Assembly: GCA_963821525.1 (NCBI GenBank)
Contig: CAWGED010000005.1
Span: forward strand, 192,001-256,000
DNA from: an uncultured Gemmatimonadales bacterium
Lineage (GTDB): Bacteria > Gemmatimonadota > Gemmatimonadetes > Gemmatimonadales > GWC2-71-9
Direction of reading: 5' to 3'
Length of the DNA stretch: 64,000 nucleotides
Positions within the stretch are counted from its first letter, which is position 1. Each line of letters starts with the position of its first letter. The notes under the pieces are model-generated. The model was not told where the DNA came from. It ran no database searches and saw only the letters and a list, made by a program, of their open reading frames with translations. Positions 1 to 23,943 of this stretch are shown one piece after another. Both the position numbers and the translations under genes were made by a program.

Positions 1-186
1 GGCTTCCTCGACGACGTCGAGGTCAAGTCGATCCGGAAGTGGGAAGCGGATTTCCTCGCGTACCTCGAGGCGCAGCATCCCGCCGTGCTGCAGGGCATCC
101 GTACCAAGAAGACGCTGGACGAGGACCTGACGGGCAAGCTCAAGGCCGCGATCGCCGCCTTCAAGCCGCTGTTCCGGGCCGAGTAA
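1..186 (+). CDS. atpA: F1Fo ATP synthase subunit alpha, C-terminal end (partial)
   Basis: Frame 1 reads [61 protein letters not shown], directly before atpG. Confidence 0.9.
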
Positions 187-1088
187 ATGGCCAAGTCTCG
201 CGGCGCTCCGGGGACGGATCCGCTCCGTGCAGAACACCCGCAAGATCACGCGGACGATGGAGCTGGTCTCCACGTCCAAGCTCAAGCGGGCCCAGGATCG
301 CGTCGTCGCGGCGCGGCCCTACGCGGAGGCGCTGGCGCGAAGTCATCGCCGATCTGGTCACGCCCGAGCTGCCAGGCCCGATTCCCGCTGCTCCGGCAGC
401 CGGCGCCGCACGGCAAGGGCGGTCCCAAGCGGGCGGCGGTCATCCTGATCACGTCCAACCGCGGGCTGGCCGGCGGGTTCAACTCCAACCTGATCAAGGA
501 AGCCCGCCGCCGCATCGAGGCGCTCGAGGGCGCGGGCTACACCGTCGATCTGCACGGCGTGGGTAAGAAGGGCATCGGGTACTTCAGGTACATCGGGCGC
601 GCCGCTGGCACTCAGCGGCTCGACATCGGTGACAAGCCGACGGCCGATCACGCCTCGGAGCTGGTGGCTCCGCTGATCGAGGAGTTCGCGGCGGGACGGC
701 TCGCCAGCGTGGACATGGTCTACGCCAAGTTCAACAGCCCGCTGTCCACGCCGCCGACGCCTGCTGCCGGTCCTCCCGGTCGAGACGCCGGAGCGGCCGA
801 AGGGCGGCAGTGCGGCCCGACTACATCCTCAAGCCCGGGGCGGACGAAATCCTGGAGCAGCTGTTGCCGCTCTACGTCCGGAACCTGGTGTACCGGGGCC
901 TGGTCGAGACCGCCGCGTCGGAGCACGGCGCCCGGCGCACCGCGATGAAGAACGCGACCGACAACGCCGGTGAGATTCACGATCTGCTGAAGCGCACCTA
1001 CAACCGCCAGCGCCAGGCGGCGATCACGCAGGAAATCGCGGAGATCGTCGGCGGGGCAGCGGCGCTTGGAGGGATAGTCGCCGATTGA
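187..1088 (+). CDS. atpG: ATP synthase subunit gamma (frameshifted)
   Basis: [28 protein letters not shown] and [18 protein letters not shown]...[16 protein letters not shown] lie in different frames; the true stop may be ~1077. Confidence 0.95.
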
Positions 1089-1156
1089 AGATCGAAGAAT
1101 TCAGATTGAAGATTGAAACAGCTAGCAGCTAATGGCTAACAGCTAACACAGCTAAC
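1083..1156. repeat. Intergenic heptamer tandem repeats (GATTGAA-type, then GCTAACA-type)
   Basis: gattgaagatcgaagaattcagattgaagattgaa followed by cagctagcagctaatggctaacagctaacacagctaac. Confidence 0.8.
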
Positions 1157-1172
1157 GGACCGACAGGCACAC

Positions 1173-2853
<1,681 letters not shown>

Positions 2854-2864
<11 letters not shown>

Positions 2865-3469
2865 GCTTCTGGTGTTTTTAGTAGCGGCAGGACTGGCGTC
2901 AACGGCAGGGACGTTGCCGGCGCAGACGCTCGGCACGCCAATTTTCATGGCGCCGACCCGCGCGTTTCAGAAACAGGAATTAGGTGGTTATATCTCGGAT
3001 CCCGGCGAAGGGGTGAGCATCGCGATCGAGGGCGAGTACCGGCGCTTCCATAAGACCTTCGACTGGGGTTTCCAGGGCGGTTACATGGACGCAGATGGTG
3101 GCGGCGACAACATCGGCGCGCTCGGTATTGATGCCCGCGCCGTCCTCGCCAAGCACAGCGAGGATTTCCCGCTCGACGCTGCGGTGACGGGTGGCTTTGG
3201 GGTTCTCTTTTCCGGCGGTGACGTCGGTTTCCTCATCCCGCTCGGCGTTTCGCTTGGGACGCCAGGTCCTGCTGGAAGAGTCCAAGATCAGCTTCACCCC
3301 CTACGTCCACCCGGTCATTGCTCCGGCCTTCGGCGACCTGTTCGACGACGCTCAGTTTGGTCTGGGTCTCGGCGTGGATATCACCCTCACCAAGACGTTC
3401 GATGTTCGGGTGAGCGGTGCGGTGGGGGACTACGAAGGAGTGGGGATCGGCGTAGCGTGGCATAAGTGA
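2854..3469 (+). CDS. Putative small outer-membrane beta-barrel protein (frameshift ~3255)
   Basis: Signal peptide, alternating Gly/hydrophobic strands, ends GVGIGVAWHK. Confidence 0.6.
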
Positions 3470-3513
3470 GTAGCCCGCTGCCGGCCTGTTTCTTATCAGC
3501 CGTTCCCGTATGA

Positions 3514-3550
3514 CACGACCCTCCTCGGCGTGGAGCCGAGGAGGGTTGTG
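3514..3550 (+). terminator. Stem-loop after the atp operon/OMP gene
   Basis: accctcctcggc-gtgga-gccgaggagggt, perfect 12-bp stem. Confidence 0.6.
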
Positions 3551-3651
3551 CTATCAGGCCCGTTTCACGGCGTCCGATCTCTGCCCACCAGATTGACGAA
3601 CCCCGCGCGACGCCGCTACCTTGCGCGCCGATTCGACTCGATTCCCCGGAG

Positions 3652-4293
3652 GTGTTGATGCGGCGGTACCCGACAGTGCTTGCTGCGGCGTGCGTGTTGC
3701 TCGCCGGTCCGCTCGAGGCGCAGGTCACTGGCCTCCCCACCCGCAATGCCGGCATCCCCAGCGGCCTCAGTGTCGGAGCCGAAGTGGGCTTCCCCAACTC
3801 CGACTACGGCGATGGAACCGCGTATGGGGCACGGGGCGCGATCGGGTTCGGCACCATCGGACTCTCGGCGATCATCTCCCACTTCGATCCTGAGGGGTCG
3901 GTCGATGGCTACACCGCCCTCGGCGGCGACCTCAATCTCAAGGTCTTCGGCGGTCCATTGGTCCCGCTCTCCGTGACTTTACAGGCCGGTGCCGAATACG
4001 CCGACCCGTCGGGTCCGGGAACCGTCGTCCACGCGCCGATCGGCCTGGGTATCGCGCTCACAATTCCCAATCCCAACCTCGCCATCAGGCCCTGGATCGC
4101 TCCGCGGGTTGATGTCACCCGAGTCACTGGAAATGTCGATGAGACCAACACCAACTTCGGACTCTCGGGCGGCATCGATCTGAATTTGATTTTCGGGCTC
4201 GGCCTGACGTTCTCTTACGATCAGGTTTGGGGCGACAACGGCGTGAAGCCCTCGGTGTTCGGTGTGGGAGCCAACTGGACGTTCGGACTCTGA
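3652..4293 (+). CDS. Putative outer-membrane beta-barrel protein
   Basis: Signal peptide (LEA-Q), amphipathic strands, ends FGVGANWTFGL. Confidence 0.7.
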   Translation: MLMRRYPTVLAAACVLLAGPLEAQVTGLPTRNAGIPSGLSVGAEVGFPNSDYGDGTAYGARGAIGFGTIGLSAIISHFDPEGSVDGYTALGGDLNLKVFGGPLVPLSVTLQAGAEYADPSGPGTVVHAPIGLGIALTIPNPNLAIRPWIAPRVDVTRVTGNVDETNTNFGLSGGIDLNLIFGLGLTFSYDQVWGDNGVKPSVFGVGANWTFGL

Positions 4294-4297
4294 TCGC

Positions 4298-4675
4298 GTG
4301 AATTTCCGCCTGCATCTGCCCGCCCGGATCATTCTTGCCGCGGGACTGCTCCTCGTGTCGGGCTGCGCCAACACGTTCGACGCGACACGGCTTGGCGTGC
4401 CGGTGACCATGGCATCAGGTGGCGACGCCCCCGCACAGGGCACCTCGTTCAAGGTGACCTCGCACGCCGTTTACGGTTTCTGGGGCGTGGTCCAGTTCTC
4501 TGAACCGTCGCTCAAGAAGGCCTTGAGCAGCCAGCTGGTCGGGGGAGCCGGAGTAGCCGACCTCAAAATCAAGGTCCGCAGCAGGTTTCTCGATGTGATC
4601 ATTACCGGGCTTACGCTCGGGATTATCGTGCCGCGCTCGGTGACGTTTGAAGGCGTTGTAGTCCAGCCGAAGTAA
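4298..4675 (+). CDS. Lipoprotein, Bor/TRL-like
   Basis: Lipobox VSGC; YGFWGVV and ITGLTLGIIVPRSV. Confidence 0.55.
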   Translation: MNFRLHLPARIILAAGLLLVSGCANTFDATRLGVPVTMASGGDAPAQGTSFKVTSHAVYGFWGVVQFSEPSLKKALSSQLVGGAGVADLKIKVRSRFLDVIITGLTLGIIVPRSVTFEGVVVQPK

Positions 4676-5957
4676 CCAGCCCCTCAACCATTCGCGCGCA
4701 GCGCTCCGCCGCTCCGCGTCCCTGATCGACCACCGCCCGGGCGACCCGTCCCGCCGCGGCCCGGGCCGCTTCATCCGTGTGCCAGGCAGTCCACGCGCGG
4801 ACGAGGTCCGCGGCTCCGGTCGCGCCTCGCCGGATGGAAAGCCCGCCTCCCTGAGCCAATAGCCGGCTCGCGTCCAGGCTCTCGTGCCAGTGGGGGCCCA
4901 CGGTCACCGGAATCGCCCAGGCCGAGGGCTCCAGTACCGAATGGAGGCCCGCGGTGCCAAACGCGCCGCCCACATGAGCAACTTTTCCTGCTCCGTACAA
5001 CCTCGCGAGCCTTCCGGAGCGATCCTCGACCATGAGGGGTGCGGGTTTGACGGCGTCCGCCACAAGCACCGGGGGAGGCAGCCCGAGTTGAGCCGCGGTG
5101 CGTTCGATCCGGTGGAGCTGACGGGATGATGGTTCGTGAGGCACCAGGATGAGCCGGGAGTCGGGGTGCTGCCGTCGCAGTGTCCTGAAAGCGCTGAGCA
5201 GCACCTGATCGTCGGAGTGCCAGGTCGATCCCCCCACGATGGTCCATGCATCCGCACCCAGGGCTAGCAGGGGGTCTTCCGGTGACACCTCGGCGACCTT
5301 GGCCGCGACGCTGTCGTAGCGCGGGTCGCCCAGCGTCTGGATTCGATCCGCTTCCACGCCAAGTTGGACGAGCCGGTCGGCATCGTCTTCCGATGCCGTT
5401 CCGACGGCGTCCAGGACAGAGTACCCCGGATGGAGCAATGCGCGGATCGGCCACCGGAGCCTGCCGCTGTGCGGCCGCACTGTCCCCGTGATCAATCCGA
5501 GCTTGATGCCACGCTGATGCGCCCTGGTGGCGAGCTCGGGCCAGATATCGACTTTGGTGAAGATCAGGACGGTGGGGGAGAGGAGGTCGAGGAACTCGGT
5601 GACGTCGTGCACCCGGTCGTAGGGGAGGTATCCGGTAACGTCGGCGGGGAGCTTCGTCAGAAGCGGTTCAGCCGAGGGACTGAAACAGCTGAAACCGATC
5701 TGCCAATCGGGCTGCAGGCGGCGGAGCTCACGCATCACCGCCTCGGCCTGGCGTGCTTCTCCCACCGATGGCGCGTGAAACCAGACCAGCGGCTTTGCCA
5801 GGTCGCGGCTCGCAGCGGCCCATTGGCGGAATCCTTCGAGACTCGCTGCGCGCCCTTCATGCCCGAGCACGATCTTCCGGCTCCAGGCCCCCGCCACCGG
5901 TGCGAGTGCGGTGCCGAGCGTGATCGCGGCGCGATAGAACGGGTTGGTTTCGGTCAA
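4623..5957 (-). CDS. waaA: Kdo transferase family glycosyltransferase
   Basis: VWFHAPSVGE, YLPYD, DIWPE, LILVPHEP, VGGAFG...HSVLEP. Confidence 0.85.
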   Translation of the reverse strand: MTETNPFYRAAITLGTALAPVAGAWSRKIVLGHEGRAASLEGFRQWAAASRDLAKPLVWFHAPSVGEARQAEAVMRELRRLQPDWQIGFSCFSPSAEPLLTKLPADVTGYLPYDRVHDVTEFLDLLSPTVLIFTKVDIWPELATRAHQRGIKLGLITGTVRPHSGRLRWPIRALLHPGYSVLDAVGTASEDDADRLVQLGVEADRIQTLGDPRYDSVAAKVAEVSPEDPLLALGADAWTIVGGSTWHSDDQVLLSAFRTLRRQHPDSRLILVPHEPSSRQLHRIERTAAQLGLPPPVLVADAVKPAPLMVEDRSGRLARLYGAGKVAHVGGAFGTAGLHSVLEPSAWAIPVTVGPHWHESLDASRLLAQGGGLSIRRGATGAADLVRAWTAWHTDEAARAAAGRVARAVVDQGRGAAERCARMVEGLVTSAGLQRLQTSPSAAR

Positions 5958-6007
5958 GGAACGCCGGGCGGTAAGAGCGCCGCTTTGGAGTGAGCCATCC
6001 TGTCGAC

Positions 6008-6037
6008 TTGCGAGAGCGCCCTGCCTACTGCTAAACT
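6008..6037 (+). promoter_or_regulatory. Sigma70-like promoter with extended -10
   Basis: TTGCGA (6008-6013), 18 nt, TAAACT (6032-6037) with TG at 6029-6030. Confidence 0.5.
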
Positions 6038-6082
6038 AAGTCCGTTCGCCCTATGTTCCACCCTGTGAGAGGAGGTGATCCA

Positions 6083-6142
6083 TTGTCTAGTGAGAGTTGC
6101 ATCCGTAGCTCGAGCAGGGCAAGCGATCGCCTGAGCGAGTAG
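6083..6142 (+). CDS. Putative 19-aa Ser-rich peptide MSSESCIRSSSRASDRLSE
   Basis: TTG start immediately after AGGAGGTGATCCA; TAG at 6140-6142. Confidence 0.4.
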   Translation: MSSESCIRSSSRASDRLSE

Positions 6143-6201
6143 CGGCGTCGAAGTGACGCCGGAGGCCCGAGGCCGATCGTCTCGAGCTCGATGACAACCG
6201 A

Positions 6202-6245
6202 CCGCGCCATTCCGTGAACTCACGGGGTGGCGCGGCCTGCTTTTC
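6202..6245 (+). terminator. Intrinsic terminator-like hairpin
   Basis: ccgcgccattccgtg-aact-cacggggtggcgcgg (15 bp, 2 G-U) then cctgctttt. Confidence 0.65.
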
Positions 6246-6286
6246 CCTCCTCAGTCCTCAGTCCTTTCCCTCATTACTTTCTTTCC

Positions 6287-7012
6287 ATGCCCTCCTACTG
6301 GTCCACCACCCGGGCCCCCCGCTACAGCCTCACCTTCGCCTTCCCATTGCTGATCCTCTACGAGTTCATGGCCCGCGGCCTGTCCGGGCCGGACGGCTCG
6401 GGGATCCGGAATGGGGCCGATGTTCTTCTCAAGAGCCTGTTCGTCCTGCTGGGCGGAGGACATGGCCTGACGATCTTCGGGGTGCTTCTGCTGGGCACCG
6501 GCATAGTCCTGGTGTGGCGAGACCGGCGGAAGAACGGGCCCATCGAGGGCCGGTACTTCGTTGGGATGCTGGCGGAGTCCGTGGTCTACGCGGTGCTGTT
6601 CGGGGTGGTGACGAGCCTGCTCACGACGCTGGTGCTTCAGGGACCGAGACTCCTGGCGCTCGGTCCAATGGAGGGACAGGGCCTCGGCACCCAGATCATG
6701 GTTTCGCTGGGTGCCGGGATCTACGAGGAATTGCTGTTCCGGGTCCTGATTGTCGGGGCGCTGTCGCGGTTTGCGATCGGGGCCTTCCAGATGAAGCCCT
6801 TTCCGGCGGGAGTCTTCGCGACGCTTCTGGGAGCGGTCATCTTCGCGGCATTTCACTATGTCGGCCCGCTGGGCGACAGCTTCGAGCTGACCTCCTTTAC
6901 CTTCCGCACCATTGCCGGCGTGTTGCTGAGCGCCCTGTATCTCGTCCGGGGCTTCGGCGTCACGGCCTGGACCCACGCGTTGTACGATGTGTTGCTGACG
7001 GTGGCGCGGTAG
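6287..7012 (+). CDS. CPBP (CAAX/Abi) intramembrane glutamic endopeptidase
   Basis: GIYEELLFR, IFAAFHY, HALYD motifs; multiple TM segments. Confidence 0.88.
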   Translation: MPSYWSTTRAPRYSLTFAFPLLILYEFMARGLSGPDGSGIRNGADVLLKSLFVLLGGGHGLTIFGVLLLGTGIVLVWRDRRKNGPIEGRYFVGMLAESVVYAVLFGVVTSLLTTLVLQGPRLLALGPMEGQGLGTQIMVSLGAGIYEELLFRVLIVGALSRFAIGAFQMKPFPAGVFATLLGAVIFAAFHYVGPLGDSFELTSFTFRTIAGVLLSALYLVRGFGVTAWTHALYDVLLTVAR

Positions 7013-7014
7013 CG

Positions 7015-7153
7015 GTCGAGGTCGATGGTCGATGGTCGATGGTCAATGGTCTAAGGTCGTGAGTCTAGGGTCTTGAGTCTTGTGACCATGACTCATGACC
7101 CAAGACCTATGACCAACGACCTATCGACTATCGACTATCGACTATTGACTATC
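7015..7153. repeat. Inverted heptamer repeat arrays between convergent genes
   Basis: (gtcgatg)n...gagtcttg then catgacc...(tatcgac)n. Confidence 0.8.
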
Positions 7154-7776
7154 ACCCTTCACCCCCGTCCTCACCTTCCACAACGAATCCAGAATGTGCC
7201 GGTAGGTTTCGAGGGGTGCGGCTCCCTTGAGTAGTCCGGCTCCCTCGATGTAGACCGTCGGCGTGCTGGAGACGCCGGAGCGGGCGGCCGAATTGGCTTC
7301 GCTCTGGATGAGGCCCGGGTTTCCTGCTTCTGGAGACAGGAAACAATCGAGTCTCGCGGCACGCCGGCCGAGTCGGCGAGCGTGAGGAGAAACGGCGCCG
7401 GATCCTTGAGCGGGGCCCACTTGGACTGGTACTGGAAGAGCAGGTCGTGGATCGGCCAGAAATGATCGGCCTTGGCGGCGCACATCGCGAACTCGGCGGC
7501 CGCCCCCGCGTTGGGATGGAGATCGGTGATCGGGAAGTTCACGAAGATCCAGCGCACTTTTCCGGTCGAGATGAATTCCTGTTCCAACTGCGGCAGCACT
7601 TCCATGGCCTGCTTCCGGCACCAGGGACACTGGAAGTCTGACATTTCGTAGACCGTGACCGGCGCCGTCGGCGAACCCTTGGTTCGTGCGGCAACCAGGC
7701 CCGGATCCTTGAGCTGCGCCGCGGCGCTCGTGAAGCCGCCGATCGTCAGCAAGAGCGCCAGCATCGGAATTCGCAT
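7142..7776 (-). CDS. DsbA family thioredoxin-fold protein (frameshift ~7315)
   Basis: EMSDFQCPWC, NFPITDLHPNA, GVSSTPT. Confidence 0.88.
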
Positions 7777-7777
7777 G

Positions 7778-8524
7778 TTAGTACCTCGACTGCCGCTTTC
7801 CCGTCGTGCGATCGAGCACGATCTTGCCACTGCGGATCGGGACATTCCAGTACCATTCTGCGTTGGGATCGTCGGCCACCCACGAACGAGCGTACACCCA
7901 CCAGTCGCCATTCGGCAACCGGATCGTCACCGAACCATCGGCGCCCGTCGTGTCTGGAATCGGCTGGCGTCCAACTACATTGTTGAGCCGGTCGACGATA
8001 CTGTCGTAGCCCTTATAGGTGCTATCTTGCCAACGGCTCATCAGTTCGCGGAGGCTGTCGATCGGCGCGGCCAGCGTGTCGCGAGCCTTCTTGAGCTGGA
8101 GTTGTGCCGCGTCGCGCCGCTTGGCGAAGTCGGCGAGCGAGTCGGAGAGGGTGTTGAAGTGCCGGTAAAGGAACGCGTAGTCCGGTGCCGACCGCGGCAT
8201 TGAATCGAGCCGGACCTTGAGGCGTGCGAGGGAATCCTGGGTGCGGGTCACGGCCAGCGACGCAGTGACGTAGGCGTGGAACGGCTTCTGGAAGGCATGG
8301 AACAGCGTATCCAGTCGCTGCTTGATCCGTGTCGGCGGGGTGGCCTTGGCCTCGAGCAGGGCGATGATGCTGTCCCGGTCGTAGGAGAGTACGATCAGTG
8401 GTAGGTTCGCCACCGGCGCGTCAACAGAATCGGGGCCGGGAATGGCGACGTCTACACGGACTTCCCGGCCGCCGCAGGCGGCCAGAACCAGAGCGAGCGT
8501 GATCAAACAGCGGGGCACAGGCAA
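7778..8524 (-). CDS. Hypothetical lipoprotein with coiled-coil segment
   Basis: Lipobox LAAC; 248-aa ORF co-oriented with dsbA. Confidence 0.65.
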   Translation of the reverse strand: MPVPRCLITLALVLAACGGREVRVDVAIPGPDSVDAPVANLPLIVLSYDRDSIIALLEAKATPPTRIKQRLDTLFHAFQKPFHAYVTASLAVTRTQDSLARLKVRLDSMPRSAPDYAFLYRHFNTLSDSLADFAKRRDAAQLQLKKARDTLAAPIDSLRELMSRWQDSTYKGYDSIVDRLNNVVGRQPIPDTTGADGSVTIRLPNGDWWVYARSWVADDPNAEWYWNVPIRSGKIVLDRTTGKRQSRY

Positions 8525-8528
8525 CCGG

Positions 8529-9402
8529 GTGAGGGGGACCGAAGGGGTATTCGGGCCGGGGAAAGCTAGGCGAGTCCTGGGGTTGCTTCAACTCATCCCG
8601 GCGCTGCTCGTGGCACAGCAGAGCGGCGGAATCGACTCGCTCTTTCCCGCGCGCCCCACCGGGTACCTCACCGACGTTGCTGGCGTCGTGGATCAACCGT
8701 CGGCCTCCCGGATCGAAGACCTTGCCGCCCGCCTCCGGACCGCCACGGGCGCTGAGCTCGCCGTGGTTACCCTCCCCACTCAAGGACGCTACGAAACCTC
8801 CGAGCTTGCCCTGGCCATCGGTCGGGCTTGGGGCGTGGGGGCCAAGGCCGAGATCGGCGACCAGCGCCGCAACGCGGGCCTGGTACTCCTCGTCGTGCCG
8901 AAACGCGAAGGACAAAAGGGCGGGCTCTACCTCGCCACCGGGCGCGGAGTCGAGGGCATCGTCACCGATGCCACCGCCGGCCGGATTCTGGATCTCATGA
9001 TCCCGCAGCTCCGACAGGGTGAATACGGGCCCGGCGCTCGTCACCGGCACCGAGGCGATCGCAAGCACCGTCGCCAAGGGCTTCGGTGTCACCGACTCCG
9101 CCCTCACCGCGGCCGATCCCTTCAAGAGCTCCGGGGGCGGTGAGGGCGGCATTCCGGGCTGGGTGATTCCGGTTCTGTTCATCCTCGTGTTCTTTGTTCT
9201 GCCCATGTTGGCGCGCGCCGGTCGCGGCCGCGGTGGTCGAGGGGGTAGAGGCGGCCCCCCGATTTACTGGGGACCGGGCTGGGGTGGCGGTGGCTGGGGC
9301 GGTGGCTTTGGCGGTGGAGGTTTTGGTGGTGGTGGGGGAGGATTCGGCGGCTTTGGTGGTGGCGGCGGGTTCAGTGGTGGCGGTGCGGGAAGGAGCTTCT
9401 GA
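8529..9402 (+). CDS. TPM domain protein with Gly-rich tail (frameshift ~9030; start uncertain)
   Basis: GYLTDVAGV, AELAVVTLP, WGVG, ATGRGVEG, GGFSGGGAGRSF. Confidence 0.88.
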
Positions 9403-10124
9403 TGAGCAACGACGTCGAGCAACTGCTCCAGTCATTTCTCACTCGGGCCGATCAGGCAGGGTTGGGCAACTACGTTGCCGTACTCTACGGTTCCCATGCC
9501 CGGGGGCATGCGCTGCCCCGCCGGTCGGACGTGAACCTGCTCCTGATTCTGGACCAGGTAGACGCTGCGAGGCTGCGAGCATTGGGCCCCGCGTTCAGCG
9601 AATGGGAGGCGGCCGGGCAACCGCCACCAATAATTCTATCGAAGGTGGACTGGGAGCGGTCGGCCGACGCGTTCCCGCTCGAGATCTCCGACATGGCGTT
9701 GGCATACCGGGTCCTCAGGGGAGACAATCCGCTCGCGAGCATCGCCGTGGATCGCGCCGACCTCCGACGCGCGCTGGAGCGGGAGCTGCGCGGCAAGATG
9801 CTCCGGCTGAGACAAGCCTACGCCACGTTCACCGGCAAAGGGGACCGCCTGGCGGAGCTGGCGCAGGGTAGCGCGGGAGTCATCCAGTTTCTCTTCCGGA
9901 TGCTGGTCAGTGTCGCCGGGGAAGCTCCCCCGGGAGACGCCCAGCAGGCGGCGGCCGCGGCGGGCCGGCTTGCCGGCTTCGATCCCGCCGCCACCCAGAC
10001 AGTCTTCGCCCATCGGGGCGACCCCAATTGGCGCTGTAGCGACGAGGATTTCGTAGGGTATCTTCACGCGGTGGAAGCGGCCGCGCGCTTTGTGGACCAA
10101 CTTCAGACTGGAGAGCGGAGATGA
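9402..10124 (+). CDS. Nucleotidyltransferase-fold protein
   Basis: VLYGSHARG...SDVNLLLI; DAFPLEI. Confidence 0.7.
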   Translation: MSNDVEQLLQSFLTRADQAGLGNYVAVLYGSHARGHALPRRSDVNLLLILDQVDAARLRALGPAFSEWEAAGQPPPIILSKVDWERSADAFPLEISDMALAYRVLRGDNPLASIAVDRADLRRALERELRGKMLRLRQAYATFTGKGDRLAELAQGSAGVIQFLFRMLVSVAGEAPPGDAQQAAAAAGRLAGFDPAATQTVFAHRGDPNWRCSDEDFVGYLHAVEAAARFVDQLQTGERR

Positions 10125-10684
10125 TGCGGTACCTTCGGCTGTCTCTGTTGCTGCTCGCGGTGACGGCCACTGGCTGCGGCTATAACAGGATCCAGGCAAT
10201 GGACGAGCAGGTCAATTCCGCCAAGGGACAGATTGCGGCCCAGCTGCAGCGGCGGGCCGACCTGATCCCGAACCTGGTGGAAACGGTGAAGGGCTACGCC
10301 AAGCACGAAGAGACGATCTTCACCGAAGTCGCCAACGCGCGGGCCAAGCTCGCGGGCAGCGTGCAGTCGGGGAATGTCGAGGAGATGGCGCAGGCCAACC
10401 AGGCCATGAACGGCTCGCTGGGACGCCTCCTCGCGATCGCCGAGAACTATCCGCAGCTCAAGGCTGATCAGAACTTCCGCCAGTTTGCCGACGAGCTGGC
10501 CGGCACCGAGAACCGGATCTCCGTGGCTCGGCAGGACTACAATACCGCGGCGCAGCAGTACAACACCTTCATCCGCACCTTCCCCTACAACCTCACGGCG
10601 AAGGTCTTCGGCGCCGGGGGACCCAAGCCCTACTTTGAGGCGAAGGAGGGGGCGGAGGAGGCGCCGTCTGTGAAGTTCAATTAG
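10121..10684 (+). CDS. lemA: LemA family protein
   Basis: QRRADLIPNLVETVKGYAKHE, ENYPQLKA, GTENRISVARQDYN. Confidence 0.95.
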   Translation: MMRYLRLSLLLLAVTATGCGYNRIQAMDEQVNSAKGQIAAQLQRRADLIPNLVETVKGYAKHEETIFTEVANARAKLAGSVQSGNVEEMAQANQAMNGSLGRLLAIAENYPQLKADQNFRQFADELAGTENRISVARQDYNTAAQQYNTFIRTFPYNLTAKVFGAGGPKPYFEAKEGAEEAPSVKFN

Positions 10685-10689
10685 TCGGG

Positions 10690-10803
10690 AGCTGTTAGCT
10701 GTTAGCTATTGGCGGTCAGAAACTAAGAACCCTCCGGGGACACACCGGAGGGTTCGCTTTTCTGGGAGCTGCTAACAGCTAATCGCTAACAGCTAGCCGC
10801 TAG
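10690..10803. repeat. Inverted GCTGTTA/TAACAGC heptamer arrays enclosing a terminator hairpin
   Basis: gctgttagctgttagct...gaaccctccgg-ggacaca-ccggagggttc...gctaacagctaatcgctaacagctag. Confidence 0.8.
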
Positions 10804-11720
10804 TCCACCACAACCTGCGGCAGCACGTACCGCAGCGGATCGACCGGCTGGCCACGCACGTGGACCTCGTAGTGGAGGTGCGGGCCGGTGGCGAGGCCGG
10901 TATTCCCCACCTGGGCGATCAGGTCGCCCCGCTTCACCCGCTGGCCCTGGTGCACCAGAATCTTCGAGCAGTGGGCGAACTTGGTGGTAATCCCATAGCC
11001 GTGATCGATCTCGACCGTGTTCCCATAGCCGGTTTCCCAGCCGGTGGAAATCACTACGCCCGCGCCGGGGGACTGGATGGGGGCGCCGAGGGGGGCCTGC
11101 ACATCGATGCCCTCGTGCGGCCGCGCGTAGTGCAGGATGGGATGCTCCCGCATCGAGGCAAATGCACTCGTGAGCCAGCCCGTGGTGGGCATGATGGACG
11201 GCATCGCCACCAGCCGATCGCGGTGGGCGGAGATGCTGTCCGTGGCTTCTTTGAACGAGAAGGCCAGCAGGTTGGCCCGACGGATCAGGCCGGCCAGATC
11301 CACCCGGACCTCCTCGGCCCGGCGGGCGAGCACGTTGATCGGCCGCGCGATCGCACCCTCGGGGGCCGGGCCACCGATACCGGCCTGCTGCACCTGGGGA
11401 TCGTTGGGCTCCAGGTTCGCCATCAGGCGAATCTTGGCGTCTCGCTGGGCGATGAGGCGCAGGGTATCCGACAGGACGTCGACCTTGCCGTTGAGCTGGC
11501 CGATCTGCTCGGCCAAGTCGGCGTTTTCACGCTGGAGGGCGGAACTCCGCTGGAGACTGACGCTTCGTGAAACGGTGGCGTAGCCGAGAAGGAGGGCGGA
11601 AAGGACGAGGACCACACCGAAGCCGGCTGCGATCTTCAGCAGCGCCTGAGATACCTCGACTGCTTTCGAGGCACCTGAGCCAGGTGGCACGATGACAAGA
11701 GTCCACTTCCGTTCGCCCAT
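10800..11720 (-). CDS. M23 family metallopeptidase
   Basis: HEGID, GYGN, ATGPHLHYEV; N-terminal TM plus coiled coil. Confidence 0.93.
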   Translation of the reverse strand: MGERKWTLVIVPPGSGASKAVEVSQALLKIAAGFGVVLVLSALLLGYATVSRSVSLQRSSALQRENADLAEQIGQLNGKVDVLSDTLRLIAQRDAKIRLMANLEPNDPQVQQAGIGGPAPEGAIARPINVLARRAEEVRVDLAGLIRRANLLAFSFKEATDSISAHRDRLVAMPSIMPTTGWLTSAFASMREHPILHYARPHEGIDVQAPLGAPIQSPGAGVVISTGWETGYGNTVEIDHGYGITTKFAHCSKILVHQGQRVKRGDLIAQVGNTGLATGPHLHYEVHVRGQPVDPLRYVLPQVVVD

Positions 11721-11829
11721 TCGCCTGCCTTAGCTAAGCTGTTGGAGTTGTGTGAATAAGCTGGCGTTATAATGCTCCTCGGTCCCAGGCATGTCAAGGT
11801 ACAAGACGACACGTTCAAGTGTTTGACTG

Positions 11830-13353
11830 TCAAGTTTTTACTATGGCTAACTTGGGGAAAAGTCCGGCGGGTTTTCTGACCTGCAGGCCGGCCACTTTGG
11901 GGCGCTCCAGCCCCTGAATCCGGCTCTTTTCGGCCCGGCCCTCCAAGCCCAGGTGGGTCCAAAGCTCCTCGGCCTTCCCGGGAAGGAACGGGGAGGTGAG
12001 GACCGCGAGCCGGAAGAGACAGCGGGCCAGCGCGGCAAGGGTGGCATCGAGTTCCGTCTCCTTGCCCTCCTTGGCCAAGGTCCAGGGGGCGCGCTGGACG
12101 ATGAACTGGTTCGCCTCCCCTACCAGGGTCCAGGCAGCCTCGGCGCCACCCTTGAGGTCGGTGGCATCCATGGCCTTCCGGTAGGCGGCCAGCGCCGCCG
12201 CTCCAGCTGCATCCAAGGGCGTATCCGCTCCTTCGGGCACCACTCCGGCCCGGTACTTCTCGATCATGGCGAGAGAGCGTGAGGCGAGATTCCCAAGTCC
12301 GTCGGCCAGGTCGCTGTTGTAGCGCGCGTCGAATCGCTCCCAGCTGAATTCTCCGTCTCCGGAGAACCCGACCTCACGTAAAAGGAAGTAGCGCAGCGCA
12401 TCCGGTCCGTGGTGGGCGATTGCCTCCGACAACTCGAGCCGCACCCCGGCGCTCTTGGAGAAGCGGTCGCCACCGAGATAAATGAAGCCATGGGCCCAGA
12501 CCTGTTCCGGCAATGCTTCACCGGCAGCCTCGAGCATCGCGGGCCAGATCACCGTGTGGAACCGGGTGATGTCCTTGCCGACCACGTGAATCTGGGCGGG
12601 CCAGCTGGCGCGGGAATTGGGGAATCGCTGCGCGGTCCAGTAGTTCGGCAGGGCGTCGAACCAGACGTAGGTGGTTTGGGTCTCGCCGTCGCTGGTCGGA
12701 CGGGGGAAGGGTACACCCCAGCTGAAGCGGCTGCGGCTCGCCGAGACGTCCTCCAGCCCTTCTCTCAGGAGTCCGAGAATTTCGTTGCGGCGGATCTCCG
12801 GCTGGACGAACTCCGGTTTCCTGGCGAGCAGATCCTCGAGGAACTTCTGGTAGCGGGAGAGCCGGAAGAACCAGTTCCGCTCCTCGACCAGCTCGAGGGT
12901 CCGGGTGGGATGCAGCGCGCAGTGCCCGTCCACGATGTCCGCTTCGGTCTTGAACGACTCACATCCGACGCAATAAAGCCCGGAGTACGACTTCTCGTAA
13001 AAGTCATCCGGGTTCCGCGCGAAGATCTTCTCGATCAGCTCACGCACCCCCGCCTTGTGCTCGGGGGCGGTGGTGCGAATGAACTGGTCGTAGCTGATGT
13101 TGAGCTCCGCCCAGGTGCGCTGGAAGGACGTTGCCACCTGATCCACCAGGGCCTGAGGAGTGATGCCCTGGTCGGCCGCGGTCTGGGCCACCTTCTGGCC
13201 GTGCTCGTCCATGCCGATGAGGAACCAGACGTCGTCCCCCTTCAGCCGGTGATATCGCGCGATGCAGTCGGCGCCGACCTTTTCGAAGGCGTGACCCATG
13301 TGAGGGTCGCCATTCGCATAGTCGATCGCAGTCGTAATGAAGAAGTGACCCAC
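11830..13353 (-). CDS. metG: Methionine--tRNA ligase
   Basis: TTAIDYANGDPHMGH, DEHGQK, YVWFDAL, GKDITRFH, FSKS. Confidence 0.97.
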   Translation of the reverse strand: MGHFFITTAIDYANGDPHMGHAFEKVGADCIARYHRLKGDDVWFLIGMDEHGQKVAQTAADQGITPQALVDQVATSFQRTWAELNISYDQFIRTTAPEHKAGVRELIEKIFARNPDDFYEKSYSGLYCVGCESFKTEADIVDGHCALHPTRTLELVEERNWFFRLSRYQKFLEDLLARKPEFVQPEIRRNEILGLLREGLEDVSASRSRFSWGVPFPRPTSDGETQTTYVWFDALPNYWTAQRFPNSRASWPAQIHVVGKDITRFHTVIWPAMLEAAGEALPEQVWAHGFIYLGGDRFSKSAGVRLELSEAIAHHGPDALRYFLLREVGFSGDGEFSWERFDARYNSDLADGLGNLASRSLAMIEKYRAGVVPEGADTPLDAAGAAALAAYRKAMDATDLKGGAEAAWTLVGEANQFIVQRAPWTLAKEGKETELDATLAALARCLFRLAVLTSPFLPGKAEELWTHLGLEGRAEKSRIQGLERPKVAGLQVRKPAGLFPKLAIVKT

Positions 13354-14400
13354 TCAGGACTCAGTCGGAGGGGATTCGGGGCCTTCGCTCGCTCCGCCAC
13401 GGCCTCTGCGGCCACGCCGCCGCCGCCGCCGTCGGGGCCCGCTTCCCGGCTCCGCGGGGGCCTGAGACGAAGGAGGCGCGGACTCCCTGGCGGGAGCGGG
13501 AGTAGGAGCGGGCGCCGGAGGCGGAGGCGGAGCGATGGTGGCCGCTTCCGGGTGGGCGGCTTCCATTTCGTCCCGGAGTTGCACCAGCGGGATAATGCGC
13601 GAGCCCTGCTCTTCGTGGCGGAGGAAGACCCGCTCCCGGAAGATGTCGACCGCCACCACCTTCTCCGGGCCGCGGGCAGTCTGAAGCGTCTTCCCCTCGC
13701 GGGGGAATCGCTTGCGCGAGGCGACGTAGAACTCGTGTTCGTACTTCAGGCAGCAGAGCAGCCGGCCGCAGCCGCCGGAGATCTGAGCCGGGTTGAGCGA
13801 GAGATGCTGGTCCTTCGCCAACGCCAGGCTCACCGGGGACAGCTCGGTCAGCCAGGTTGAGCAGCAGTATTCCCGCCCGCAACGGCCCACGCCCTTGAGC
13901 CGTGCCGCCTCATCCCGCACGCCGATCTGACGCAACTCGATCCGGGTACGAAACTGTGCTGCGAGATCGCGGACCAGGGCGCGGAAGTCCACCCGCTTTT
14001 CCGCCGTGAAGAAGATGGTGAGCTTGCCCCGGTCCCACTGCCACTCGGCATCGCTCACCTTCATCTCGAGGGAGTGTTGCCGGACCTTGTCGATCACCTT
14101 GCGGCGGGCTTCTTCTTCGTTCTGGCGCAGTTCGTTTGCGGTGCGGATCTCTTCCTGGGAGGCACGTCGTACCACTGGACGCATCGCGGGAGGGGCCGTG
14201 GCGCCTACCGCGCACCCGTTGCAGGCGCCGGCGCATTTCTTCTGCGCCACCTCTCCCGCCGAAAACACCCGTCCGAAGTCGAGGCCACGCTCCGCCTCGA
14301 CCACGACCGCTTCCTTCAGCCGGAGCGGATCCTGCTCGTCGGTCCAGAGGAAAAAGTCGCGGCGGGTACCCTTGAAGCGTACTTCGACGGTTTGAGGCAT
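13354..14400 (-). CDS. ricT: PSP1/RicT (YaaT) family protein
   Basis: RVDFRALVRDLA, IELRQIGVRDEA, CGREYCC, ISGGCGRLLCCLKYE. Confidence 0.92.
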   Translation of the reverse strand: MPQTVEVRFKGTRRDFFLWTDEQDPLRLKEAVVVEAERGLDFGRVFSAGEVAQKKCAGACNGCAVGATAPPAMRPVVRRASQEEIRTANELRQNEEEARRKVIDKVRQHSLEMKVSDAEWQWDRGKLTIFFTAEKRVDFRALVRDLAAQFRTRIELRQIGVRDEAARLKGVGRCGREYCCSTWLTELSPVSLALAKDQHLSLNPAQISGGCGRLLCCLKYEHEFYVASRKRFPREGKTLQTARGPEKVVAVDIFRERVFLRHEEQGSRIIPLVQLRDEMEAAHPEAATIAPPPPPAPAPTPAPARESAPPSSQAPAEPGSGPRRRRRRRGRRGRGGASEGPESPPTES

Positions 14401-15362
14401 CAGGTCTCGGTAAAAGCGCCCATGGCCGCGTACTTGTCAGCACGGCGGCGCACCAGCTTTTCGGGCCGGACCTTTCGCAACTCCGTCATGTGGCGAATGA
14501 GAGCTTCTCGCAGAGCCTCACCGGTCGCGTCGGGGTCGAAATGCGCCCCTCCGAGCGGTTCCGGAATAATTTCGTCAATGAGCTTGAGTCGGAGCAGGTC
14601 CTGCGCCGTCAGCTTCAATGCATCGGCCGCCCGTTCCCGCTGAGAGGCGTCCTTCCAGAGAATCGCCGCGCATCCCTCGGGCGAAATGACTGAATAGACC
14701 GAGTTCTCCAGCATCAGCACCCGGTCGGCCACACCGAGCGCGAGCGCTCCGCCGGAGCCACCCTCGCCGACGACGACCGCGATGCAGGGCGTCGGGAGTG
14801 CGGCCATCTCCAGAATGCTGCGGGCCAGGGCTTCCGACTGTCCCCGCTCCTCCGCGCCGAGTCCTGGATAGGCGCCCGGCGTGTCGATGAGGGAGATGAC
14901 CGGAGCGCTGAACTTGGCCGCCAGCTTCATGAGGCGGAGCGCCTTGCGGTATCCCTCCGGGTGCGCCATGCCGAAATTGCGCTTGAGATTCTCCTTGGTG
15001 TCCCGCCCCTTCTGGTGCCCGATCACCATCACCGAGACGCCGGCCAGCCGGGCCCAGCCCCCGACGATCGCCGGATCGTCGCGGTACAACCGGTCTCCGT
15101 GAAGCTCGATGAAGTCGGTAAAGATGGTGCTCAGGTAATCGAGCGTGTAAGGCCGGCGTGAATGGCGCGCCACCTGCACCCGCTGCATTGGGGTCAGGTT
15201 CATGTAGATCTCGGATCGGAGGGTGTTGAGCCGGACCTGGAGGAGACGGGCTTCTTCCGAAACGTCGATCTGCTGCTTCTCGCCCAGCTGGGTGAGATCC
15301 TCGATCTGCCGCTCCAGTTCCTGCAGGGGCCGCTCAAAATCGAGACTGTAGGTGTTCGCCAT
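14400..15362 (-). CDS. accA: Acetyl-CoA carboxylase carboxyltransferase alpha
   Basis: ELHGDR, PEGYRKALR, DTPGAYPG, GEGGSGGAL, SVISPEGCA. Confidence 0.97.
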   Translation of the reverse strand: MANTYSLDFERPLQELERQIEDLTQLGEKQQIDVSEEARLLQVRLNTLRSEIYMNLTPMQRVQVARHSRRPYTLDYLSTIFTDFIELHGDRLYRDDPAIVGGWARLAGVSVMVIGHQKGRDTKENLKRNFGMAHPEGYRKALRLMKLAAKFSAPVISLIDTPGAYPGLGAEERGQSEALARSILEMAALPTPCIAVVVGEGGSGGALALGVADRVLMLENSVYSVISPEGCAAILWKDASQRERAADALKLTAQDLLRLKLIDEIIPEPLGGAHFDPDATGEALREALIRHMTELRKVRPEKLVRRRADKYAAMGAFTET

Positions 15363-15380
15363 TTCGTTTCTAAGAGAGGA

Positions 15381-15440
15381 GCCCCAAGCCCGAAGCCGTA
15401 AGCCATAAGCATGAGAGCCTAAGGCCTATGGCTTATGGCA
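15381..15440. repeat. Heptamer repeats (GCCRTAA-type) with inverted copy
   Basis: gccccaagcccgaagccgtaagccataagc...gcctatggcttatggc. Confidence 0.7.
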
Positions 15441-15481
15441 TTCCCCCGAAAGGGGTTTCTGGTTCGCGGTTTCGCCCAGGG

Positions 15482-18400
15482 TTAGCCTGCCCGAACATAC
15501 TGCACGTGCTCGGCACCCAGCAACCTGCGGAGTCCCTGGATCAGCTCCTCATCCGGGGCAATCCTGACCCGTCTGGACCGGGCCCTCAGCCGCTCTCCAT
15601 TCCCGTCGCTCCATTCAATATAGAGCGGAGCCGGGCCCGGGTGAGCGGCGCAGAGCGCTACGGCTTCCTTGATTCGCTCGGGGGGCGGGGCTTCTGGTGC
15701 CTTCCAGCGGAGCGCCACGCCGAGGGCTCCGCTGGGTATGAGCTCATCGAGCGGCCGCGCCAATTCTACGACGAACGGTGCCCGTTCCTCCCCGCGATCC
15801 CGGGCGCTGTAGCCGCCCGTGAGCAGCACAGGCAAATCGTCACGGATCACCTGGTTGAGCCGGGCCCAGGCGTCCGGGAAGACGATGGCTTCCGCCGTCC
15901 CGTGGAAATCCTCGAGGGTGATCCGGGCGTACTCCTTCCCGGTCTTCTTGGAGATCTGCCGTTTCACCAAAGTGATGACCGCCGCGATCGTCACCTGGTG
16001 TTCACTCCATTCTCCGAGCGTGCTCGTGGTCCGGGTGCCGAACACTTCAACCTCGGCGCGGAACCGTTCCAGCGGATGGCCCGAGATGAAGAAGCCCAGG
16101 ACCTCCTTCTCCTTCGCCAACCGGTCGGCTTCACTCCATTCGGGCACTTCCGGCAACGTCTCCTGGTGATGCCGCGCGGCGACCGCATCTCCGAACAAGG
16201 AGGCTTGTCCCGCCTCCCGCTCCTGTTGGGCCAGTTGTGCTTCGCCCAGCGCCTCATCCAGCCCAGCCGCGAACTGCGCGCGGTGCCCGCCCAGGGAGTC
16301 CAGCGCACCTGCAGCGACGAGGGATTCGATCACCCGCTTGTTGGCGAGGCGCAAATCAATCCGGCTGGCGAAGTCTGGCAGTGATTTGAACGGCGCGTCC
16401 TTCCGCGCGGCGATGAACGAGTCGATTGCCCCGCGCCCCACGTTCCGCACCGCGCCCAGCCCGAAGCGCAGCCTCCGGTCTCCAATCACCGTGAACTTGA
16501 ACCCCGACTCATTCACGTCGGGTGGGAGCACCTCGAGGTCCAGCTCCCGGGCCTCGTTGATGTACTGCACCACCTTGTCAGTATTCCCGATTTCGGACGA
16601 GAGCAGCGCAGCCAGAAACTCGGCGGGGTAGTAGGTCTTGAGCCACGCCGTCTGGTACGACAGGAGCGAGTAGGCGACCGAGTGCGACTTGTTGAAGCCG
16701 TACCGGCCGAAGGTCTTGATCTGGCCTCCCAGCTCCTCCGCCAGTCTGCGCTGAATGCCGTTGGCGACGGCCCGCTCGATGAACCGCCCAACTTCCTTGT
16801 CGATGAGCTCCTGATCTTTCTTGCCTACTGCCTTCCGCAGCACGTCGGCTTCGGCCAGGCTGTATCCCGCGAGCACGTTCGCGATGCGCATCACCTGCTC
16901 CTGGTAGGTGATGACGCCATAGGTCGGCTCGAGCACCTCGGCAAGCAACGGATGCGGGTAGGTAACCGTTTCCTGTCCCAGCTTGCGCCGAATGAAGACC
17001 AGGTGCATGCCGGCATCGAGCGGCCCGGGACGCAATAGCGCGTTCGAAGCCACCAGATCATCGAACCGGTCGCACTTCATGTTGCGTAGGGTGTCGGTGG
17101 CCAGCGGAGATTCGAACTGGAATACGCCGGCCGTCCGGCCGTGCCTCAGCATCTCGTAGACTTTGGGATCGTCGAGCCCCAGCGTGTCCATGTCGAGCGT
17201 AATGCCGTGACGCTCCTTGATCATTTCGATCGCATCGTGGATCACGGTCAGCGTCTTGAGGCCGAGCATGTCCATCTTCAGCATGCCGACCTTCTCGAGG
17301 GCGTCCATTTCGTACTGCGTGATGATCGCGTCTTCGCCCTCGGCCGTGGCCCCGGCGCCCTTGGTCGGCGCGGTGCATACCGGTACGTACTCGGTAAGTG
17401 GTCCCGGAGCGATCACCACTCCCGCCGCATGCACCGACATGTGCCGGGAGATGCCTTCGATTCGGGAGCCCAGACGTCACCAGCCGGCTGTACACCGGAT
17501 CGTTCCGCACCAGGTCCCGGAGCTCGGGTACTCGGTCTACGGCCTCTTCGATGCTCAGGCTGTAGGCCGGTCCCGAGGGGATGAGCTTGGTGAGCCGGTC
17601 GGCGTCACTGGGCGGGATCCGCAGCAGCCGGGCTACGTCCTTGAGCGCTGCCCGCGCCTTCAGGGTTCCAAAGGTGATGATCTGACCCACGCTCTGGCGC
17701 CCGTAACGTTCCCGGACGTACTCGATCACTTCACCCCGGCGTTCGAAGCAGAAGTCCACGTCGATGTCCGGCATGGATATCCGCTCGGGATTCAGGAAGC
17801 GCTCGAACAGCAGATCGAACCTGAGCGGATCGACGTTGGTGATGCCGAGCGAATAGGCGACCAGCGAGCCGGCGGCGGAACCGCGGCCGGGGCCCACGGG
17901 GATCCCGCGCTCCCGTGCCGCCGCGATGAAGTCTTGTACAATCAGGAAGTAACCCGCGTATCCCGCCTTGTTGATCACCCCGAGCTCGTAGGCCAGCCGC
18001 TCCTGGACTGCCTGGGGCAAGGGTGAGCCGTACCGGGCGCTGGCTCCTTGCCGCGCGAGATCCTCCAGGAGCTGCTCATCACTCGTGTGCGTGGCAGGGC
18101 GGGGGAAACTCGGGAGGAAATACTTCTTCTCGAAGCTGAATTCGCAGAGGTTGGCCACCTTCGCCGTATTGGCCAGGACCTCCGGCGTGCGCTCGAACAG
18201 CGCCGCCATCTCCCGCTCCGACTTGACGTACGACTCCTGCCCCATGAAGCGGAATCGCTTCGGGTCGTCCAGTTCGGCGCCGGTTCCGATCGCGAGCAGT
18301 ACGTCGTGGGCCTCGGCATCCTCCCGCCGGAGGTAGTGCGCGTCATTGGTAGCGACGACTCCAAGGCCCAACTCCTGGCCCAGCTGGAACATTCCGGCAT

Positions 18401-18963: not shown

Positions 18964-19047
18964 GTAGTTCGCTGTCCACGGTTCCTCGTCGCGATCCTGC
19001 CGTGCCGCATGCGCGGCCGGCCCCAATCGCTGATGGCCCGCGAACAG

Positions 19048-19734: not shown

Positions 19735-19775
19735 CGATTGTCAAAACCCGTTGTGCTGCTTTATCTTGCCTCGCG

Positions 19776-21736: not shown

Positions 21737-21795
21737 CTGAAAGCGGTGAACAGGGAACCGGGAAAGGGAACCGGAGCAGGGTGAACTGATCTAGC

Positions 21796-21888: not shown

Positions 21889-21926
21889 TCTCACCCGGTC
21901 CCGCATTCCCCTTCCGCCCTCCCGCC

Positions 21927-23937: not shown

Positions 23938-23943
23938 CTCCGC

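Follow-up and report, generated by a model that had tools for sequence, protein, structure and literature searches.

The window analysed here (the whole 64,000-nucleotide stretch of DNA) carries, between a divergent kdtA/waaA gene and a gene for an intramembrane protease, a short element at 6008-6245 with the following features:

6008..6013, + strand: -35-like hexamer TTGCGA, from the sequence, 4 of 6 positions as in the consensus; not called by the promoter scan
6029..6037, + strand: extended -10 TGnTAAACT, from the sequence; the offset of its hexamer is conserved in homologues
6045..6066, + strand: 5' leader, with GCCC at 6048-6051 predicted to form a pseudoknot with a GGGC bulge (6117-6120) in the rod state
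6056-6062, + strand: weak upstream anti-Shine-Dalgarno (anti-SD) TTCCACC, within the 5' leader
6067..6082, + strand: extended Shine-Dalgarno (SD), 13 Watson-Crick pairs (6070-6082), or 16 with one G-U, to the 3' end of the genome's own 16S rRNA
6083..6142, + strand: 19-codon ORF running from TTG to TAG, conserved in frame and in stop position but not in peptide
6096..6114, + strand: 5' strand of the rod, pairing with 6181-6198; a local hairpin in the locked fold
6117..6132, + strand: internal anti-SD/anti-start, pairing in the lock with 6073-6080 and 6083-6088; in the rod 6123-6132 pairs with 6170-6180
6143..6161, + strand: hairpin directly after the stop codon, within an apex of variable length
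6170..6198, + strand: 3' strand of the rod (anti-anti-SD), from folding and covariation
6202..6245, + strand: terminator-like hairpin, 15 pairs, weak T tail
4623..5957, - strand: flank, outside the element; divergent kdtA/waaA (PF04413), a neighbour in 44 of 111 Gemmatimonadota loci
6287..7012, + strand: flank, outside the element; CPBP/Rce1-like intramembrane protease (PF02517), downstream in 36 of 111 loci

A sequence-only reading of this DNA had described a self-contained structured transcript with a very long SD and a small TTG ORF, and all the coordinates that it named match the sequence. The 13-mer AGGAGGTGATCCA at 6070-6082 is indeed the exact complement of the 3' tail of the genome's own 16S rRNA; the pairing reaches 16 pairs (6067-6082) when one G-U is counted and, for the window copy, might extend further into 16S helix 45. 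In the 4.33 Mb genome this 13-mer occurs three times (in the element, in the 16S gene itself and at one further site), while about 0.1 copies are expected from base composition. The nested pairings 6096-6103/6190-6198, 6107-6114/6181-6188, 6123-6132/6170-6180 and 6143-6149/6155-6161 all exist, as do the 19-codon ORF and the 15-bp terminator-like stem (6202-6235), whose T tail is poor. Folding of 6045-6250 gave z = -4.09, with 0 of 200 shuffles as good, and folding of the rod alone gave z = -2.04 (6 of 200 shuffles as good). The promoter TTGCGA-18-TGnTAAACT scores 8 of 12 by our count, below the threshold of the promoter scan, which did not call it, but a TANNNT hexamer stands at the same offset in 59 of 110 homologues versus 11 of 110 in a control window, and this conserved offset predicts a transcription start at about 6044-6045. 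No tRNA or tmRNA was found in the 64-kb window.

Transcription in Gemmatimonadota is suggested by metatranscriptome contigs of low depth (3-6). Contigs were compared from 8 of the 24 runs listed; four match the element without a difference and contain hardly anything besides it (X8, 6036-6217; X10, 6064-6215; X11, 6073-6221; X6, 6004-6216), while X2, X5 and X7 extend beyond it, X7 to 6354. Considering this low depth, the contigs that run on and the fact that a possibly DNA-derived run (X1) also stops in the terminator, the 3' stops of these contigs are no evidence of a transcript end.

Other features were noticed around the element. A short 7-base repeat follows the terminator at about 6250-6265, with a similar run on contig C19, and behind the CPBP gene (7020-7155) degenerate 7-base repeats stand in two runs of opposite orientation, which might pair into a long hairpin where convergent genes meet. 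Genes at 187-2604, 7142-7911 and 8442-9402 are split over several frames, which suggests indel errors of the assembly; they comprise two that we take from their translations to be atpG-like and atpD-like, one DsbA-like gene (by Pfam match) and one further gene.

We looked at the distribution of the element. As the sequence-only reading had proposed to check, BLAST found it conserved in all 4 genomes of the same genus, with weaker matches in other genera. An exact 17-letter pattern matched once each in 102 of 301 genomes of the phylum, of which at least 3 are off-target (long frames or coding DNA), while the reversed control gave 0. A covariance model built from 39 window-like copies matched in 55 of 101 genomes of the family and did not find the element in the other 46. 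Nine pattern-negative genomes have no element beside kdtA, although in G084, which is among the nine, it lies at another place. When the pattern was changed to require a non-T second codon, it matched 19 times in 17 of 151 genomes, and none of these matches is an intact element by eye. Scanning all genomes returned at least 120 loci; of the 80 with titles among the matches listed, 66 belong to Alphaproteobacteria or unclassified proteobacteria, 11 to Gemmatimonadota, 1 to Planctomycetaceae and 2 to Lachnospiraceae, the last two being judged not to be elements. The pattern was found in 49 of 251 sampled Pseudomonadota genomes (control 1) and in 11 of 151 Planctomycetota genomes (control 4). Among 35 Pseudomonadota loci inspected, 30 have frames of 14-31 codons and 5 are ordinary long genes with an 11-base perfect SD ahead of ATG (L328-L332), and 8 of the 11 Planctomycetota loci looked element-like by eye. 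These Planctomycetota versions (L303-L310) have 10-19 codons in at least two layouts and reach 23-37 bits to the Rfam family CC2171 where scored.

The pattern also gave 41 matches in viral contigs, which were set aside, since most of them fall on a single ordinary phage gene preceded by a strong SD and a few are host-like copies; the phage gene family (L032-L071, about 30 viral contigs) has the same 13-base SD and TTG start followed by a long frame. A plasmid search returned 12 short matches, unannotated.

We sorted 216 distinct loci into three Gemmatimonadota subtypes, T1 (window-like, 73), T2 (18) and T3 (20), and three alphaproteobacterial ones, A1 (Caulobacter-like, 65), A2 (rreB-type, 13) and A3 (rreR-type, 14); 13 other loci were excluded from these counts. 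As 25 T1, 3 T2 and 16 T3 loci all lie beside kdtA, the three Gemmatimonadota subtypes are likely orthologues despite their different frame lengths (17-24, 14 and 11 codons). On the downstream side, 8 of the 111 Gemmatimonadota loci have a convergent DsbA-like gene, and 20 of the remaining 58 downstream frames gave a Pfam match, to ten other families. In one family (L274-L281), 10 loci were scanned, and in 8 of them a diaminopimelate epimerase gene begins just behind the element. Some single loci are unusual in other ways: an isolated copy of leader and SD followed by unrelated DNA lies about 4 kb from an intact element and is possibly the relic of an insertion (L337, G115:C129:6750); a CRISPR array-like 36-base repeat with unique spacers holds the SD motif in one spacer (L343, G101:C1:392885); a very short variant of about 100 bases has its stop codon at the terminator and matches model R1 weakly (L214, L215); and in two Caulobacter-like copies the 3' region contains the 16S anti-SD sequence letter for letter (L111, L128). 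Taken as a whole, the data support a self-contained, conserved and structured mini-mRNA, whose RNA is likely about 190 nt long.

The ORF is conserved in an unusual way, as its frame and stop position are kept across homologues while the peptide is not. The start codon is TTG or GTG in 111 of 111 Gemmatimonadota loci, with ORFs of 11-24 codons, and ATG occurs in 0 of the 102 phylum matches even though the pattern allowed it; some Pseudomonadota copies do start with ATG. The stop falls at 17-24 codons in 73 of 73 T1, at 14 in 18 of 18 T2 and at 11 in 20 of 20 T3 loci, and in T1 the three stop codons interchange (TGA 28, TAG 26, TAA 19). In all 73 T1 loci the anti-SD lies in the same frame, 43, 46 or 49 bases from the SD, and the stop comes 2-23 bases past it (mode 11). 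By contrast with this fixed frame, pN/pS over 54 distinct T1 frames is about 1.9, a crude value in which codons with several hits count as replacements and related copies are not independent; mean hydropathy of the peptides is -0.64, codon 2 encodes Pro in 4 loci found by the covariance model, and frameshifted copies persist (L005, L236, L237). These results suggest that frame and stop are under selection and the peptide unconstrained, so that translating likely matters and the peptide likely does not.

The sequence-only reading held that the ORF is buried in the rod hairpin. Our analysis points to the reverse, since the rod would free the ribosome site and it is an alternative helix with 6117-6132, overlooked in that reading, that covers SD and start codon; the rod is one of two mutually exclusive folds and not the computed minimum for the window copy. 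By the criterion that at most 5 of 100 dinucleotide shuffles do as well, pairing between the ORF body and the SD with its start codon exceeds the shuffled level in 71 of 73 T1, 18 of 18 T2, 19 of 19 T3 and 12 of 13 A2 loci, but in only 31 of 64 A1 and 2 of 12 A3 loci. In A1 this lock is weaker (-10.5 to -15.4 kcal/mol in five loci), and in 6 of 12 A3 loci the anti-SD lies in the 3' tail. The anti-SD sequences differ among the subtypes that bear the lock. For 39 of the 73 T1 loci, aligned without regard to structure, RNAalifold returns the lock as its consensus, with 99.8% of the alignment cells paired in these 39 homologues and one-sided changes only. Two-sided covariation was not found for the lock in the 39-locus alignment and it does not beat the shuffle control, as one of its strands is nearly invariant. 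Of 18 further model-found loci 17 could be parsed; 10 of them had escaped the exact pattern, and one has the same sequence as a locus of the alignment. The 13 core lock pairs are all intact in 16 of the 17, and in these 16 the changes on the SD side keep the pairing (codon 2 from TCT to CCT in 3, GAT to GGT in 2), while two unpaired spacer bases vary. The Watson-Crick run to the 16S tail of the window genome ranges from 11 to 18 nt, with a mode of 13 in T1.

The rod competes for the same anti-SD, and therefore rod and lock are mutually exclusive. Here the covariation asked for by the sequence-only reading is found: over the 39 T1 copies 90.7% of cells are paired and 11 of 20 pairs show two-sided changes, with 78 two-sided cells versus 29 in shuffled alignments (0 of 500 shuffles as good), and slid controls pair at 30-41%. 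The core helix of the rod is 97.4% paired, with 6 of 7 pairs compensatory. The leader GCCC is present in 71 of 73 T1, 8 of 18 T2 and 1 of 19 T3 loci, and its predicted pseudoknot with GGGC is 98.7% paired, with wobble changes only and a duplex energy of -9.5 to -12.5 kcal/mol.

In the window copy the computed energies are -62.0 kcal/mol for the lock and -58.9 for the rod, a difference of about 3. Across T1 the predicted probability of the lock exceeds 0.5 in 48 of 73 nascent prefixes versus 14 of 73 full bodies, while for the window copy it is near 1 in the model for both prefix and full length; opening of this copy would thus need the pseudoknot, which is outside the model, or binding of a 30S subunit. 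Forcing the SD open lets at least 40% of the anti-SD find new partners past the stop codon in 54 of 73 T1, 16 of 17 T2, 18 of 19 T3 and 12 of 13 A2 loci. With the 28 nt behind the anti-SD blocked, relocking was predicted in 21 of 73 loci instead of 14, a small rise that supports the relocking step weakly. We consider it probable that both folds are functional.

The element has relatives with a literature. The rre genes (rreB and rreR) are extended-SD mini-mRNAs of Alphaproteobacteria (Hahn et al. 2016, PMC5711450). In that report the rreB mRNA is 165 nt long, has an SD of 17 nt and a GTG frame of 14 codons, is found mostly in P100, co-sediments with 30S and is weakly translated; removing the start codon lengthens its half-life from 10 to 37 min, a 60-nt ORF-only product is formed, the 5' extension of the SD is essential for binding, and 20-fold overexpression leaves growth unchanged, ribosomes far outnumbering the RNA. 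RreB and RreR are described there as unstructured peptides, conserved within their clades, and function was left open, including whether some condition makes translation efficient (PMC5711450). Subtype A2 is rreB itself, as L126 matches the published cloning oligo (PMC5711450), and a tRNA-Gly gene is present at 11 of 13 A2 loci. The window element resembles the published rre genes in being a probable stand-alone small RNA with an SD running up to a non-ATG start, a TCT second codon, an ORF within the range of 11-24 codons and a terminator-like stem; with rreB it also shares the GATCGCC core of the anti-SD and a predicted hairpin over SD and start codon. It differs in phylum, in its TTG start and unrelated peptide, in pairing (13 perfect pairs, 16 with the G-U, versus 16-17 perfect pairs, the first base of GTG among them, in the rre genes as published), and in having a split anti-SD with a GGGC bulge and its GCCC partner in the leader. 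Measured against the definition of rre genes, the short non-ATG ORF directly behind an extended SD and the predicted hairpin over most of SD and start codon are both there, and a conserved -10-like hexamer, a terminator-like stem and variable neighbours would suit a stand-alone unit, but the pairing ends before TTG and does not reach the first base of the start codon with at least 16 nt.

The second relative is the Rfam family CC2171 (RF01867), which gave its best match in the genome at the window element, with 24.4 bits (E 0.006), below the cut-off of 75 bits. Scanning 1-20000 against Rfam gave CC2171 (E 0.13) and, apart from it, just one lncRNA match due to chance, and the Ms_IGR-5 model (RF02471) gave five weak matches in the genome, none at the element. 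CC2171 scores are higher elsewhere, up to 43.1 bits (E 8e-6) for the best Gemmatimonadota copy, 42-47 for A2, 31-43 for A3 and 120 for the Caulobacter locus L127; reciprocally, model R1 scores 16-22 bits on the CC2171-type loci L117, L127 and L088. The score of the window copy comes mostly from the SD module and the terminator. The 5' module, the general layout, a closing helix before the terminator and the single copy are shared with CC2171, while Rfam lists that family as a non-coding sRNA with one fold, unlike the window element with its ORF and two predicted folds.

We are confident of a kinship with rre and CC2171, although the element is rre-type rather than a member by definition, because it fails both the rre length rule and the Rfam cut-off. 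Homology across phyla is likely, judging from the 5' module, the shared anti-SD core and the sub-threshold scores in both directions, and the likeness may instead reflect convergence on the 16S tail. The self-contained peptide unit that had been called undescribed is thus a conserved structured mini-mRNA of a class already described, being an rre variant with a sub-cut-off score to CC2171. The other suggestion, a translationally locked peptide mRNA, came close to what is known of rreB, except that the lock is made by the anti-SD inside the ORF and not by the rod. In the part of PMC5711450 consulted, the text contains no alternative fold and does not mention CC2171, Rfam, Gemmatimonad or Planctomyc, and we found no literature linking rre to CC2171, to a Gemmatimonadota member or to a second fold in a search that lay mostly outside subscription papers and whose supplements were not indexed. 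What is new here is the phylum, the link between rre and CC2171 and the covarying second fold.

The link to CC2171 brings in Caulobacter data. The CC2171 probe maps to CCNA_R0051, a 193-nt RNA with a 5' triphosphate that is marked as translated (CCNA_03965), and in the tables consulted its RNA stands at 1334 RPKM in rich versus 1696 RPKM in minimal medium while CCNA_03965 footprints go from 0 to 2049 RPKM (PMC4117421). With one dataset per medium, this suggests that ribosome occupancy depends on the medium. Among 58 neighbouring rows of the same tables, 2 have zero footprints and 13 zero RNA in rich medium (PMC4117421), and from these 13 zeros we take values for short ORFs to be noisy; pausing at Ser codons in minimal medium could also inflate the footprints. 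A YFP fusion strain is listed and the legend gives bands for all four small-CDS fusions (PMC4117421), among which we infer CCNA_03965 to be; as a fusion at the stop codon drops the 3' strand and apparently still gave a band, the rod would not be strictly needed for translation. According to the parts of the sources consulted, R0051 has a promoter of its own and a neighbour in convergent orientation (PMC6237742), peaks in G1 (PMC5988900) and is barely enriched with Hfq (log2 0.45; PMC11724286), and CC2171 has been confirmed by Northern blot in Methylorubrum (10.1101/2022.01.24.477521). No R0051 row stands among the entries listed of the Hfq supplement PMC11005374, no matching ORF among those listed of a Sinorhizobium Ribo-seq supplement, and nothing on CC2171 among the passages and entries listed of PMC10117765.

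Considering these data, we favour, at about even chances, a single-copy, free-standing gene for an rre/CC2171-type mini-mRNA with two exclusive folds that acts as an RNA switch operated by the ribosome. The nascent RNA would first fold into the lock, as the folding model predicts, hiding SD and start codon; after synthesis of the 3' strand, rod and leader pseudoknot could take the anti-SD and free the SD loop. By analogy with rreB, a free 30S subunit might then bind tightly and initiate rarely. A ribosome that does translate would have to melt the rod, and its stop 2-23 nt past the anti-SD would favour relocking or cleavage. The proportions of open, loaded and degraded RNA would then follow how many idle 30S subunits are available, the ribosome presumably flipping the switch and the RNA reporting this supply. 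As output we propose three candidates, the state of the RNA, the released ORF fragment with its mimic of the 16S tail, or traces of peptide. The published rreB sORF-egfp fusions, which as described contain 5' UTR and sORF without the native 3' strand, would on this reading have measured a lock-biased form.

Several other explanations have to be weighed. The element could be a decoy that stores or protects 30S subunits by covering the whole free 16S tail of idle ones, with the lock preventing this during transcription and the ORF releasing the subunit and clearing the RNA. The sequence-only reading had named a ribosome-binding decoy, which is indeed close to what is known of rreB, and the 13-16 pairs to the own 16S tail, the fact that Gemmatimonadota copies have weak start codons only, the presence of rreB mostly in P100, its co-sedimentation with 30S and its start-codon-dependent turnover (PMC5711450) all fit; yet ribosomes far outnumber rreB, whose 20-fold excess does not change growth (PMC5711450), CCNA_R0051 reaches about 900-1500 RPKM versus 18,000-27,000 for 6S RNA in the data seen, the two SD bases adjoining the start codon vary although 16S pairing suffers by it, and 46 of 101 genomes of the family gave no match to the element, so we hold this reading unlikely. 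We give somewhat less credit still to a controlled peptide gene resembling a type I toxin mRNA, in which sequential anti-SDs would block co-transcriptional translation and the peptide would be the product. As far as the reports were consulted, aapA3 (PMC6733600) shares with the window element an upstream and an in-ORF anti-SD, co-transcriptional locking and replacement by a long-range fold, and the timP switch (PMC13000454) a possible pseudoknot-aided opening; translation is reported for rreB (PMC5711450) and CCNA_03965 (PMC4117421), and Hahn et al. call both Rre peptides conserved within clades. However, the long-range fold of the window element is predicted to open the site while in those toxin mRNAs it closes it, an oversized SD is combined with a weak start, and no hydrophobic, conserved and toxic peptide was found: hydropathy and pN/pS, lengths of 11-24 codons at one syntenic site and the three persisting frameshifted copies argue against one, and so do the unstructured Rre peptides, overexpressed with no effect on growth (PMC5711450), and a Caulobacter library passage that names only AbnZ and R0184 as abolishing plating (PMC11724286). 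For an antisense antitoxin RNA the sequence gave no sign: a conserved reverse-strand -10 was not found downstream in 70 T1 loci, and a reverse terminator was not found near the 5' end.

Improbable in our view is a guide or sensor of 16S 3' end maturation or of specialised ribosomes, which would bind only 30S with a free tail (with an unprocessed trailer, or lacking a tail-binding protein) and mark or test them. The pairing does cover the whole single-stranded tail and, when one G-U is allowed, takes in the bases beyond CCUCC, and the 5' extension is essential for binding in rreB (PMC5711450), but this extension is not conserved in Gemmatimonadota, where the run to the window genome's tail varies between 11 and 18 nt around a mode of 13, and no ribosome-biogenesis genes occur among the neighbours identified. 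A leader-peptide attenuator of the CPBP protease gene, also raised by the sequence-only reading, is less probable again. The short ORF, the alternative folds, a weakly T-tailed terminator closely followed by a gene on the same strand, which is CPBP in 36 of 111 loci, and the X7 contig running to 6354 would suit it, whereas the downstream gene is variable, belonging to at least 10 other families elsewhere, and sometimes convergent (DsbA-like in 8 of 111 loci; also the Caulobacter neighbour, PMC6237742), and CPBP lies beside kdtA in other genomes without the element. Neither a fixed same-strand operon nor an alternation of terminator and antiterminator was found, the terminator stem being intact in both computed folds. 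Least credible of all is a 6S-like RNA-polymerase decoy carrying an SD by chance, as had also been suggested; a length of about 190 nt and a rod with an internal bulge recall 6S, and with E values up to 1 allowed, the 6S model RF00013 matched nowhere in the genome, which is 81% complete; the 6S gene of the lineage may be missing from the assembly or lie beyond the model's reach. RF00013 gave no score at the site either, Caulobacter has both CC2171 and a separate 6S gene, and selection on frame and stop is not expected of such an RNA.

Coming back to the ribosome-operated switch, a broader form of it can be put forward only tentatively: the rre and CC2171 RNAs and those of Gemmatimonadota and Planctomycetota could be one old cross-phylum class of bistable RNAs measuring the idle 30S pool, locked when ribosomes are busy, opened and loaded when they are idle, with translation of a dummy frame releasing an ORF fragment whose 16S-tail mimic would act on other mRNAs or on initiation. 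If true, this would be a riboswitch-like device with the ribosome as ligand and an output in trans. For work on what rre genes do, the locus offers three handles. One is the covarying rod as a competitor of the SD lock, from which particular point mutants can be predicted. Another, through the link to CC2171, is the genetically tractable Caulobacter with CCNA_R0051, for which the published data suggest medium-dependent ribosome loading. The third is the finding in a distant phylum that frame and stop are kept while the peptide drifts, which directs attention to the RNA rather than the peptide.
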